From Candidatus Babeliales bacterium (GTDB lineage Bacteria; Babelota; Babeliae; Babelales; JANWKD01): a stretch of DNA of 64,000 nucleotides. Under the pieces are notes generated by a model, which was given only the letters and a program-made list of their open reading frames with translations, ran no database searches and was not told where the DNA came from. Position 1 is the stretch's first letter, and each line of letters begins with the position of its first letter. Shown piece by piece: positions 12,904 to 57,938 of the stretch. The DNA lies in assembly GCA_963722255.1 (NCBI GenBank), contig CAVRJO010000001.1:224001-288000 (forward strand), in the 5' to 3' direction. A program made the position numbers and the translations under genes.

Positions 12904-13320
12904 ATGAAAACAACTATCTATTGTGCATTGTTTTGTCTTACCATAGCAATCTGCATGCTAAAGTGCATGGAAACACCATTCTACACCCATAAACCTCAAG
13001 AAGAATACAAATTAGTACGAATAACGCGTGATTATGCAATTTTTAAAATATCCAATGCGTTATACATCAATGGTACGTTACCAACTTTAATAACCTTTAA
13101 TTCAAAACAAAAATTTCCCATTCCAACACTTCGCAAAATGGCAAATTCAAATCCAAACAATACCATGTTAAACAGCGAATATGAAAAATATTTAAAACAA
13201 GTAGAATATCATAAAAAAAAAGGTACCCTTAAAGAATTTCATGATTACATGTCACTCTTACAGCAAAGTAGAATTTTTTTACTTCGATTAAAAATGAATA
13301 CCGATGAGTATGCAATCTAA
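12904..13320 (+). CDS. Hypothetical secreted protein
   Basis: 138 aa, N-terminal hydrophobic signal ending LKC|MET. Confidence 0.55.
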   Translation: MKTTIYCALFCLTIAICMLKCMETPFYTHKPQEEYKLVRITRDYAIFKISNALYINGTLPTLITFNSKQKFPIPTLRKMANSNPNNTMLNSEYEKYLKQVEYHKKKGTLKEFHDYMSLLQQSRIFLLRLKMNTDEYAI

Positions 13321-13520
13321 CGTTCCTTATCACATGCAATACTCTTTCCGATTATTATTCAAAGATAGATGTTTACCAAATCCTTTAATCATTGAACATT
13401 TAAAGTATTCTACAAGAGAATTAAGTCTAAACACCAATACCTTTGAATCTTACATCTAATTTTTGTAAAGTAAGTAATAAGGATATTCTTTAATACGTTA
13501 TAAACTATGAGATTAAAGGG

Positions 13521-14303
13521 ATGAATCAAAAGAATATTTTACACTCTCTAATTATCGTTCAGAGCATAATTTTTAGTACGACAACGGTAGATTTTTCACT
13601 TAAAGGAATAACGTCTTGGATAAAAGGAGCAAAAGAAGAAACATTTTTTAAAGAAATACCATTTGATTCTCAAGGAACCGTGGTTCTTGAAAATGAATCG
13701 GGAACCGTATTGATAAAAAGCTGGAGTTTCCCAAAAGTTGCTATTGAAGCTCTTAAAAGAGCACCTGGCAAAGAACTTTCTTCGCTAGATATTGAAACTT
13801 CTCTCATAGCAAATCAACTCATTGTTCGCTCACTCAATAGTTCCAAAAATGGTTCGATAGATTATCAACTCATAGTCCCAACCAATACAAATATCGTCAT
13901 CAATGGCAAAGATTGTTCAATCAAAACAAAAAACATCAGCGGCATTCATCAAATTACAACAAATAACAGTATAGACATTCAAGGCGCTTGCAATAGCATT
14001 CATGCTTTAACCGCTGGAGCTATTTCTATTGGATTTTCAAATCTACCTTCTTATGCCGCTATTTCACTCAAAAGCATTAAAAGTTCTGTTGCATTAACAC
14101 TGCCAACTCAATGTCATGCATCAATAAAAGCAACCACACAATATAATTCAATTATCTCACATCATTTAGTTACCTTAAAGCCAATCACTCTTTTATTGAA
14201 TAAACAAAGTTGGGATCAATTAAAAAAAACGATTAATGGAATAATCGGAATTGGTGGTCCACTTATAGATATATCTGCTTATAATGGAATCACGATACAA
14301 TAA
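13521..14303 (+). CDS. DUF4097-like (adhesin-type beta-strand repeat) protein
   Basis: LENESGTVLIKSW, IDYQLIVP, C-terminal IDISAYNGITIQ. Confidence 0.55.
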   Translation: MNQKNILHSLIIVQSIIFSTTTVDFSLKGITSWIKGAKEETFFKEIPFDSQGTVVLENESGTVLIKSWSFPKVAIEALKRAPGKELSSLDIETSLIANQLIVRSLNSSKNGSIDYQLIVPTNTNIVINGKDCSIKTKNISGIHQITTNNSIDIQGACNSIHALTAGAISIGFSNLPSYAAISLKSIKSSVALTLPTQCHASIKATTQYNSIISHHLVTLKPITLLLNKQSWDQLKKTINGIIGIGGPLIDISAYNGITIQ

Positions 14304-14429
14304 AAATAGTAGAAATTAGATACATAAGAAAAAATAATCATTCATCAATATCATCATTGTTAAAAATTTGGTACAATAAAAAAATACAAATGTTCCCATA
14401 TTATTAACAATTTTAATCGATATAATGTT

Positions 14430-54585: not shown

Positions 54586-54606
54586 AAAATTCAGGGTAAC
54601 TATAGT

Positions 54607-57030
54607 TTAAATATCTAAGTTTTTAACAAATTGACCGTTATCTTCAATAAAAAGCTTACGCCCTCTCACGTCATCGCCCATAAGGGTGGCAAACCAAGAA
54701 TCGGCTTCAAATTCATCTTCAATATTTACTTTAAGCAATATACGCGTCGTACTATCCATTGAAGTTTCCCATAGCTGCTCAGGATTCATTTCTCCAAGAC
54801 CTTTATACCGCTGTACCGTCATATAGGATTTACTCACCACCGCAATAGCTTTCAAGAGCGCCATTACCCCTTTAGCTTCAACAGCCTTTTCACGATCAAT
54901 GACCTGTAATCTCCATGAAGATTCTTCAATAAAGGCGATTGGTTGATAGAGCATTAAAAGATTCATAAGCTCAGCAGAACTAAAGAAATTGACATCAACA
55001 GTCCATTTTTTATTAAGAAGCTTAAACGTGACAACAGTTTCTCGTGGAGCAGGTTCTGGCATATCGCCTTGAACAACATCAGGATCCAAAGCTTGTTGAT
55101 CGATAGAAACCGTATAACGTTTAAACCAATTTTTTAAGTTTTTAAGCAACCCTTCATGGCCTTGTTCGGGTAAATATGGGAAGCTGTGGGCAAATACAAC
55201 GAGCTGATGAGCATTTTCGTAAGCCATCTTAAACTCTTTTGCAACTTGTTGTAACTTCTCTTCATAAATGTTCAGTTTATCCAATGCTATTTGCCATTCA
55301 TCAAGCGTTAACAACTTTTCATTAACAAAAAGATTCGTCGCTTCGCGAGCCCAATCAAAAAGAAAATCCTTAAATGCTTTATCATCTTTTAAATATTCTT
55401 CTTTTCTTCCTAACTTAGCTTTATAAAGAGGTGGTTGGGCAATATATAAATAACCATTTTCGATAATTGGCTTCATATATCTAAAAAAGAAGGTTAAAAG
55501 CAAGGTTCTAATATGAGCACCATCAACATCAGCATCAGTCATTAAAATAATTTTATGATAACGAGCTTTTGCTGCATCAAACTCTTCATCAATACCGCAA
55601 CCAATAGCAGAAATCAGTGTCTTAATTTCCTCATTGGAAAGCATTTTATCAAGTCGAGCCTTTTCAACGTTTAATATTTTACCTTTTAATGGCAATATCG
55701 CTTGATTGTTACGATCGCGTGCTTGTTTTGCTGAACCGCCTGCAGAATCCCCCTCAACGATGAAAAGCTCGGTTTCAGCTGGATTTTCATTTGAACAATC
55801 AGCCAATTTACCGGGCAATACTAATGATTCCAACGCAGTTTTACGACGAGTAATATCACGTGCCTTTTTAGCAGCTTCGCGAGCTCGTTTTGCAAGCTCT
55901 GCCTTTTGAAGAACCAATTTTGCAATAGCGGGATTTTCTTCAAAAAATGTATTTAATGCAGCAAATGATGCTGAATCAACAAAGCCTTTAATCTCGCTAT
56001 TCCCTAGCTTCGTTTTAGTTTGGCCTTCAAATTGTGGTTCAGGAACTTTGATGTTAATAACACATACGAGTCCCTCTCGCACATCTTCGCTAGAAAAATT
56101 TTCTCCGCCTTTTGACATACCAAGTTCAGTTGCTTTTTTATTACATGCTTTTGTTAATGCTGATTTAAAACCCGCAACATGCGTACCGCCTTCAATGGTA
56201 TTAATATTGTTTACAAAAGAAAAAAGCTGTTCACCATAACCATCATTATATTGAAGTGCTACTTCAAGAATATTCTCTTCATCTTCAGAAGAAAAATAGA
56301 TTACGCGGTCAAAAAGTGGCTTCTTTTTTTGGTTAATATGCTCAACTAAAGAAACAATACCACCTTCAAAATAAAATTCATGTTTTTTATTATTAATCTC
56401 ATCAGAGATTGTGATTCTTAATTTTCTATTTAAAAAAGCTAATTCTCGTAAACGAGATGAAAGTGTATCAAAGCTAAAGACGGTCGTTTCTTTAAAGATT
56501 TCAGGATCAGGCGTAAAACGAATATAGGTACCACGTTTTTTTGTCTTACCAATAACATGCAAACTATCAAGAGGCTTGCCCTGTGCATATGATTGTGCAT
56601 AAACGTTACCATCACGATAAATTTCTAAATAGAGACTACTAGAAAGCGCATTGACAACGGAAATACCAACACCGTGAAGACCACCAGAAAACTTATACGT
56701 ATCTTTATCAAACTTACCACCGGCATGCAGCTTAGTCATTACAACTTCTGCAGCAGAAACTCCCGCTGAGGGATGAATATCGGTTGGAATACCGCGACCA
56801 TTATCTTCAACAGAGCATGAACCATCAGGATGCAATACAACGGTCACAGTATTACAATAACCCGCTAATGCTTCATCAACTGAGTTATCAACAACTTCAT
56901 ACACCAGATGGTGTAATCCTTTAACTCCTGTTGACCCAATATACATTGCCGGTCTTTTTCTTACCGCTTCAAGTCCTTCAATGACTTGAATCGACTGGGC
57001 GCGATAGCTTTCAGATTTATTATCAGACAT
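54607..57030 (-). CDS. gyrB: DNA gyrase subunit B (long form with TOPRIM insertion)
   Basis: [49 protein letters not shown]. Confidence 0.97.
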
Positions 57031-57269
57031 GCAATTCTCCTGATCAGGCATAGAATAATTTATCTATTTTTATATATTTTTAGTGTATAATAAAAATAAT
57101 TATTTTTCTATTTTCATTACAAGCATTTTAGAAGAAATGTATACTATACTTTACTATTGCAGCAGATTTTCTCAATTTTGGAGCAAATTAACGCAGAAAC
57201 AATATAAAAACATATCGATAACTGCTTTTAAAGCTCTATACCTTCATTAAAATAGAAAGGAAAAATTTT

Positions 57270-57938
57270 ATGAAATATGTAATAACTATATTCTTTACAA
57301 CATCATTGTTTCTTGCACCAGCGTTTGTACAAAGCATGGAGAAAAAAGACTCTTCAGCAGAAGTTTCACAAGAAGAATGGCCTTATGTACGAGCTATCAT
57401 GACTCTTCCAAACGAAACATCAACAGTAGAGCTACAAGAATTTATAACACTATACACACTTCCTTACATAGCATATGTTTATGATAGACGTGATGAAAAT
57501 ACGTTCAAATCTCTACTAGGAGCTGATCCCGAGGAAATTTTAAAGGGTCGCTACAAAGAATATCTGGATCTTATAAAACACCAAGAAACTATTATAGAAG
57601 AGCTTGACCAAGGTCTTGGCAATATCGACAAAACTCGTTCTGACAACAAAAGGCTATTCAAAATTGGAAGCTATACCCTCTGGAGTGGCATTCTTACATT
57701 ATGCGCAAATCGACTTTTTCCGATGGTATCACCATTAATGAAAGAGTTCTGGTCTAAATATCCTACATTTTCATTAGTGTCTTGTACAACCGGTGTTGCC
57801 CTTAGCGGATATGGCCTGTTTACACTATTTACATATAATAACCATAGAAGACAAATAGATGGGCTTTTAAAAGCAAAAAGCGATCTTGTTACACTAAAGA
57901 TGCTTGGCGTTTTTTTCTCAGAAGAAAAAGACAAATAA
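57270..57938 (+). CDS. Hypothetical secreted protein with coiled coil and two-helix anchor
   Basis: GAAAGGA RBS; VQS|MEK; two hydrophobic segments near the C-terminus. Confidence 0.6.
   Translation: MKYVITIFFTTSLFLAPAFVQSMEKKDSSAEVSQEEWPYVRAIMTLPNETSTVELQEFITLYTLPYIAYVYDRRDENTFKSLLGADPEEILKGRYKEYLDLIKHQETIIEELDQGLGNIDKTRSDNKRLFKIGSYTLWSGILTLCANRLFPMVSPLMKEFWSKYPTFSLVSCTTGVALSGYGLFTLFTYNNHRRQIDGLLKAKSDLVTLKMLGVFFSEEKDK

Follow-up and report, generated by a model that had tools for sequence, protein, structure and literature searches.

A 64,000-nucleotide stretch of a Babeliales (Dependentiae) genome (G000:C1:224001-288000; hereafter the window) raises the question of why so many of its predicted signal peptides end directly before a methionine. 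An earlier note, made from the sequence alone, had listed 13 leaders in the window that end in a small residue followed by Met and a polar residue, and all 13 junctions were found in the sequence as described. The genome concerned (G000) measures 1.62-Mb at 34% GC, lies on two contigs and contains four matches to ATP/ADP translocases. Its nearest named relative, judged from one window gene, is Vermiphilus pyriformis (72% identity), followed by a Babeliales metagenome-assembled genome. We find that the Met-first pattern is genome-wide and spans more than 120 unrelated families. The lineage-level rule proposed in the note is borne out by this genome-wide excess of Met and by cases in relatives.

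Methionine at the predicted first mature position

A gene caller written for the analysis yielded 1414 genes in G000, and 583 of the encoded proteins had an N-terminal hydrophobic core, of which the best-scoring 410 were used. Cleavage sites were scored with a home-made model rather than with SignalP; its basis is the -3/-1 rule, and its input is positions -15 to -1, which leaves it blind to the +1 residue. Every cleavage site in the counts is predicted, either by this model or by eye. The caller missed three of the listed window genes (12904, 31383 and 32514), which were hand-scored instead, and the genome counts are lower bounds. The excess over background that the note implied is clear: Met occupied +1 in 116 of the 410 signal-peptide proteins (28%), compared with 0.5% at +2, 4.9% at +3 and a background of 1.7% across protein bodies. 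A site model retrained without +1 gave 30% Met at that position, and 2000 random draws from residues +1 to +30 averaged 10.7 Met and never exceeded 23, against 116 of 398 observed. Gln, by comparison, stood at +1 in 25 of the 410. A lenient, Met-aware rule returned 192 of 596 proteins, while the counts for eight other residues, treated identically, ranged from 22 to 75; a looser pattern added 35 proteins, part of them chance matches and many of them with Thr in position -1. The same code applied to 330 kb of Escherichia coli found Met at +1 in 1 of 62 leaders, the lone case being presumably LamB, with the cut placed one site too early. In two Bacteroidota plasmids, Met was at +1 in 0 of 8 leaders and Gln in 3 of 8, and none of 11 leader-bearing ankyrin homologues from further organisms had a +1 Met.

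The spread of the pattern within the genome was analyzed as well. Within the lenient set, the 154 blind cases represent 121 families and use 16 codons at -1, and on these grounds a single mobile leader cassette was rejected. Among 53 leader pairs with DNA similarity, the cross-family ones were mostly short and weak, with a few clear neighbour pairs. Met-class genes do tend to be neighbours, with 47 adjacent pairs, whereas 1000 shuffles averaged 26 and reached 41 at most. A count of A-M-E-E in the DNA of 261 genomes placed G000 on top (25), but its control was not codon-matched and the count was therefore not used. A metagenome scan for F-A-M-E-E-E gave 117 matches, one of them in a leader context by eye. 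One metagenome fragment (L207:611-1303) combines a leader ending FA|MEEEEE with a WD40-like end and has an insertion sequence (IS) fragment alongside.

In samples of 20-240 kb from each of 18 other Babeliales genomes, +1 Met was found in 63 of 364 leaders, a count in which 10 kb of G020 entered twice and some calls are false (e.g. a lipobox case). The cases came from 11 genomes, while seven had none; these zero-Met samples are confounded because most held no ankyrin gene. The spread across Babeliales families rests on these 18 small samples. Leader-bearing ankyrin proteins had Met in 0 of 3 cases in G048 and in 7 of 8 in G069, and Vermiphilus had it in 1 of 26 leaders at a lower threshold. G041 carries the label Pseudomonadota but groups with the relatives of G000 at the level of the order, and plasmids searched for Holosporales, Rickettsiales or Chlamydiae yielded none of these protist symbionts. 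For Babela massiliensis, supplementary file 9 of PMC4378268 has 126 ankyrin rows, of which we viewed 20, with sites assigned by eye; 18 had a leader and 17 of these 18 had the Met, none with a small +2 residue. Babela envelope rows (Prc, three PulD, Skp and BamA) had it in 0 of 6.

Of the 12 intact genes in the window itself, 10 have the pre-Met site as the first choice of the blind model, while this site comes second in 57270 and third in 53527. Orphan exported proteins are encoded at 12904..13320 (+; LKC|ME, +1 ATG at 12967, no Pfam match), 16279..16827 (-; VFC|ME, 16767), 35307..35951 (+; TYG|ME, 35376), 38585..39346 (+; LLS|ME, 38645), 51851..52531 (-; IVG|MD, 52462, with one later hydrophobic segment) and 57270..57938 (+; VQS|ME, 57336), the last without a clear homologue in a search of 200 genomes of the order. 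A small exported protein lies at 32514..32795 (+; LKG|MH, 32598), and 31383..32201 (+; IYA|ME, 31470, no Pfam match) encodes an exported protein that by eye shows an F-box-like motif and whose single-sequence fold (pLDDT 36) was uninformative and left unused. The J-domain protein at 42659..43270 (-; LFA|MT, 43201) keeps its Met in a 63% identical homologue (LCA|MN), and in the GNAT protein at 51279..51833 (+; LFG|MQ, 51336) the junction is followed by a basic run resembling a nuclear localisation signal (NLS). Two ankyrin paralogues are found at 52574..53527 (-; LDC|MS, 53467) and 53540..54475 (-; LDC|MS, 54415), and the C-terminus of the former weakly matches PRANC, a poxvirus F-box-like domain (window 52574-52750, -; E 0.0055). 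Among the cargo domains that the note had named, ankyrin, DnaJ and GNAT hold, and F-box-like is reduced to the motif in 31383 and this weak PRANC match. The thirteenth case, at 33898..35135 (+; IYG|MD, 35112), is a remnant and weaker, because an IS (33938-35079; DDE transposase at 34035-35072; three further copies in the genome) splits the leader starting at 33898 and because the frame past IYG|MD stops after seven codons. A WD40 fragment without a leader (33074-33619, -) adjoins this IS.

The observation that envelope proteins in the window lack the Met stands for a TolB-like protein with a PD40 match (7973..9247, -), for DsbD (14430..15698, +) and for 13521, although the DUF4097 label of 13521 finds no Pfam match. 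Left out of the note were six exported non-envelope proteins in the window without +1 Met (41399, 44694, 47269, 47795, 48453 and 61621). Also in the window, a eukaryote-type lysophospholipase (PLA2_B), exported with a non-Met leader, is split over two frames (43294-45467, -). Housekeeping genes that we take from their translations to be lysS-, sodA- and glmS-like (as we do for gyrB) are split by frameshifts at 46147-47168, 49234-49844 and 59552-61394, and the matches to the methionine aminopeptidase (MetAP) family hold stops. These frameshifts are likely assembly indels, and hence part of the Met genes that are short or broken may not be genuine. At window 5060-7765 (-) and at G000:C1:208966-211245 lie genes for FtsH-like proteins that carry a tandem pair of AAA domains and have homologues in relatives.

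The predicted cleavage site and the residue after it

Could the Met simply be a start codon, either the true one or one left over from before the gene acquired an upstream leader? The gene caller at times picked the +1 Met as a start, and leaderless ankyrin arrays of two relatives begin with MQ, ME or MH. The signals around the Met, which the note had named as a possible start, speak otherwise. Shine-Dalgarno motifs precede 2.6% of the +1 ATGs. For internal ATGs the share is 6.5%, and for leader starts it is 81%, a figure that is partly circular since starts were picked by that score. Cytoplasmic starts are followed by Lys in 52 and by Glu in 16 of 287 cases, whereas the +1 Met is followed by Glu in 57 of 116, by Lys in four and by Ala in none. 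No excess of GTG or TTG was seen at +1 of the G000 leaders. Moreover, a relic would neither fall exactly at +1 nor persist in homologues of 34-63% identity, where the +1 Met is kept despite changed neighbours (P0003, P0006, P0025). We conclude that the +1 Met is not a start, and regard this explanation as largely refuted. Paralogue families are mostly uniform in their Met state, with exceptions such as a single Met member in a fibre family. The leaderless arrays, in L027 (G037:C1:100000-119999) and L052 (G061:C1:1395000-1414999), have in-frame stops just upstream and start mostly with MQ, but also with ME, MH or MK; they possibly represent a family in which the leader has been lost and translation begins at what used to be the +1 Met, or the cargo of another export route. 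A Kozak-like selection on nucleotides was rejected as well, since the G-starting Ala, Gly and Val occur at +2 in 0, 1 and 1 of 116 cases.

By sequence, the Met leaders fit predicted Sec signal peptides of signal peptidase I (SPase I), with a basic n-region, a hydrophobic core and small residues at -1 and -3. Lys or Arg is present within the first six residues in 135 of 145 leaders, the median length is 21, and position -1 holds A58, G27, S21 and C10, a set that is partly imposed by the model; position -3 is mostly L, I, S, A, T or V. Tat export was rejected (motifs in 0 of 145), as were lipoproteins (a lipobox fits 1 of 23 cases with Cys at -1) and class III (prepilin) signals with +1 Met or Phe, for here the core precedes the Met and Glu peaks at +2 instead of +5. 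Sec export is favoured by acidic early mature regions, and the mature ends of the Met class are slightly more acidic than those of the non-Met class. It is accordingly conceivable that Met-Glu merely suits the LepB or Sec of this lineage, or protects against aminopeptidases of the periplasm or vacuole. We consider such a bacterial processing preference very improbable, given that envelope proteins take the same route without the Met, that the -3/-1 residues and leader lengths are similar in both classes and that some Met ends are strongly basic. Three Met-class ends without acidic residues, rich in Arg, Leu and Ser, resemble mitochondrial presequences by eye (G000:C1:720311-721195, C1:753085-753780 and C2:336179-336553).

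The second mature residue is constrained too. Glu, Asp, Gln or Asn follows the Met in 87 of 116 cases (75%; E, Q or D in 77), compared to 79 of 253 non-Met leaders. Small residues of the MetAP type occur in 10 of 116 against 84 of 253, and Leu, Ile, Phe, Trp or Tyr in 7 of 116 against 59 of 253, while Lys, Arg and His are equally frequent in both classes. The +2 bias fades towards +4, and hydrophobic residues remain depleted until about +6. Among relatives, 39 of the 63 Met cases carry E, D, Q or N at +2; in Babela the residues are E6, Q3, R2, I2, N, K, H and Y, with 10 of 17 in this set.

These are residues of the NatB class as described in the pertinent passages of PMC10611716, in agreement with the note, which had likened the ends to host NatB substrates. 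Host NatB could thus be the target, acetylating the end after arrival, with acetyl-Met-Glu needed for localisation or binding. NatB acetylation is nevertheless doubtful, for the same passages place NatA-E, NatB included, at the ribosome. In addition, a literature search on NatB acting post-translationally on bacterial effectors gave general reviews only, and MK, MH, MR, MT and MS ends are tolerated. We therefore judge this explanation unlikely; the +2 pattern is explained equally well by escape from degron pathways without acetylation.

Cargo and probable export route

A Pfam scan covered about 400 of 445 selected leader-bearing proteins (about 20 lay outside the sequence regions used and 11 short non-Met proteins were omitted), with a score cut-off of 7.5 for non-Met and 6.0 for Met proteins, which favours Met. 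Most Met proteins had no Pfam match. Cargo classes were assigned by hand; the eukaryote-like set comprises ankyrin, WD40, Skp1/POZ, F-box, C2H2 finger, J-domain, Sel1/TPR, UCH, DOT1 and Vps62 proteins, and the envelope set excludes lipoproteins and membrane-anchored proteins. The enrichment in eukaryote-like cargo expected from the note was recovered: under strict blind calls, +1 Met was present in 23 of 44 eukaryote-like proteins and in 0 of 14 SPase I envelope proteins (p 3e-4). Lenient calls gave 36 of 50 and 1 of 16 (a thioredoxin), respectively, and 1 of 25 for hydrolases, glycosyltransferases and fibres. By eye, 30 of the 38 ankyrin loci in G000 have a leader and 22 of these 30 the Met. 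An NLS-like K[KR]x[KR] motif lies within 40 residues of the end in 15 of 145 Met proteins, as compared to 7 of 253 non-Met ones. The parity of Cys residues, tried as a proxy for compartment, was uninformative.

The rule is not absolute. The split phospholipase B and three GNATs also lack the Met, as does a leader-bearing UCH deubiquitinase (IKT|QP) encoded near the type II locus (G000:C1:863852-865693; L129:12279-14117, -). This deubiquitinase and the eight of 30 leader-bearing ankyrin proteins without the Met indicate that the tag is optional, which argues against an obligatory export signal. The interpretation in the note is partly supported: the Met rule on eukaryote-like cargo stands, and its role may be either of the two offered there, a sorting tag or a host-adapted N-terminus.

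Type II is the sole secretion system to have been found in Babela, which grows in a single vacuole, according to the relevant sections of Pagnier 2015 (PMC4378268), and two gspD copies are listed for 7 of 7 genomes in those of Yeoh 2016 (PMC4776705). By analogy with Babela, the Met-class cargo is likely to leave by type II export. The type II locus of G000 contains T2SSC, two secretins (GspD) and a PilM-like protein, in the order GspC/GspD/PilM/GspD, and one N_methyl pseudopilin match was found in addition. Secretins were present in 41 of 41 genomes examined while the Met share varies among genomes, and such optional use fits a benefit for half-life. G000 has two LepB genes; a dedicated signal peptidase was rejected since they are close paralogues and since G014 has Met cases with one LepB. 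Leader-bearing AAA+ ATPases are encoded at G000:C1:28409-31354, C1:96261-97694 and C2:519422-521014, the first near two leader-bearing thioredoxin reductases, as in BAB00004-6 of Babela. Since the periplasm contains no ATP, these ATPases may act outside the cell.

Proposed escape from host N-degron pathways or a possible sorting code

The reading that we favour, at a probability of roughly 0.5, is that the Met-Glu end lets exported proteins survive in the cytosol of the protist host by escaping its N-degron pathways. Sec leaders would be cut by SPase I right before the Met, mostly with Glu, Gln, Asn or Asp next, and the cargo would leave by type II export and reach the host after translation. 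Arriving in this way, it would miss co-translational acetylation, with the consequence that most ends made by SPase I would be taken for N-degrons. An end of Met plus a large polar residue would be neither trimmed by MetAP nor recognised as a Met-hydrophobic degron; it is what remains once trimming and N-degrons are avoided. Selection would favour this end on cargo bound for the host, whereas for proteins of the periplasm, the surface and the vacuole lumen it would make no difference.

The passages of PMC10611716 on N-recognins are consistent with these steps. There, the Arg/N-degron pathway reads unacetylated R, K, H, L, F, Y, W, I and Met-hydrophobic ends, a non-acetylated ME peptide captures UBR4, KCMF1 and UBR2 poorly, Met before small residues is removed by MetAP, and unacetylated small ends of the NatA type may be read by ZER1/ZYG11B and other ligases. 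PMC7810383, in the part concerned, makes a similar point on unacetylated ends for IAP ligases.

Several observations weigh against degron escape. The evidence on degrons stems from human and yeast cells, and the N-recognins of protist hosts may differ. The predicted ends of the eight ankyrin proteins without Met include K, E, L and N and are unstable by rule, and the UCH deubiquitinase lacks the Met though it should act in the host. Ala, which also binds UBR poorly, is not enriched at +1 (17 of 294), and 3 of 17 Babela cases have Met-hydrophobic ends. Finally, the vacuolar growth of Babela demands a second translocation step, which could itself explain the motif.

This last point leads to a different possibility, namely that Met-Glu/Gln/Asp at the mature N-terminus serves as a sorting code, which either the type II system or a putative translocon for passage through the vacuole membrane would read. 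Met itself is selected rather than any stable residue, more than 120 unrelated families would need a portable signal, hydrophobic residues are depleted until about +6, and leader-bearing AAA+ ATPases exist in both G000 and Babela, the latter vacuole-bound and with Met in nearly all of its viewed ankyrin leaders. Precedents exist in PEXEL export and plastid import (the portions of 10.1101/2023.07.12.548774 and 10.64898/2026.03.27.714854 on these signals). We hold the sorting code to be possible but tentative, as the deubiquitinase, the eight ankyrin proteins and the G048 sample (0 of 3) go without the Met, no receptor or pore was found, and the LepB copies are no specialised pair. In a more speculative and rather doubtful form, Met-Glu would be the bacterial counterpart of a cleaved PEXEL, and a putative vacuole-membrane translocon, perhaps AAA+-driven, would deliver some 200 effectors without type III, IV or VI secretion. 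Sorting and degron escape are not exclusive and may both hold.

In work on the N-end rule, the N-terminal residue reportedly affects the fate of single bacterial proteins delivered to the host cytosol; those cases concern single proteins, whereas the Babeliales motif is proteome-wide and convergent. In form, the Met tag resembles the Q-rule of Bacteroidetes, a lineage-specific residue straight after the SPase I site of many Sec substrates, but it fails the defining Gln. As presented in the sections of PMC5837995 concerned, Gln occurs on most SPase I substrates and involves a glutaminyl cyclase, while the Babeliales residue is Met, on about 28%, with a bias to eukaryote-like cargo, an added +2 preference and no modifying enzyme implied. 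The PEXEL/PTEX route of Plasmodium, also a vacuole-dwelling parasite, likewise has cleavage baring x-E/Q/D on host-bound cargo; per the portion cited above, it uses RxL and plasmepsin V, unlike the Sec leader, -3/-1 site, absent RxL, Met as first residue and hypothetical translocon here. In stramenopile plastid leaders, a +1 Phe after the signal-peptide cut marks a further step, as Met may here, but in the corresponding preprint portion that Phe precedes a transit peptide, whereas the Babeliales Met has none after it and a bacterial exporter. The sets of ankyrin proteins with signal peptides in Babela massiliensis and Chromulinavorax destructans come from the same order and cargo class, with Sec plus type II export proposed in the pertinent parts of PMC4378268 and PMC6561590. 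The word methionine is absent from the main texts of PMC4378268, PMC6561590, PMC4776705, PMC5837995 and the Ciliophrys preprint; the +1 Met is visible in the Babela supplementary sequences, but no description of it was found. The full-text literature searched, exclusive of most subscription papers and of several supplements, held no earlier description of a +1 Met rule, although a passing remark may exist.

Babeliales are widespread parasites of protists; their genomes abound in orphan exported proteins, and no secretion system other than type II has been detected. The two-residue mark, in setting likely host-bound cargo apart from envelope proteins, offers a predictor of effectors from sequence only, covering about 190 genes or 14% of the proteome under lenient calls. 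It also opens to testing the way in which a bacterium confined to a vacuole gets its Sec-exported proteins into the host cytosol, and how they persist there. Either outcome, if true, would be new for bacteria, be it an adaptation of the proteome at large to the N-degron pathways of the host or an export code akin to PEXEL.

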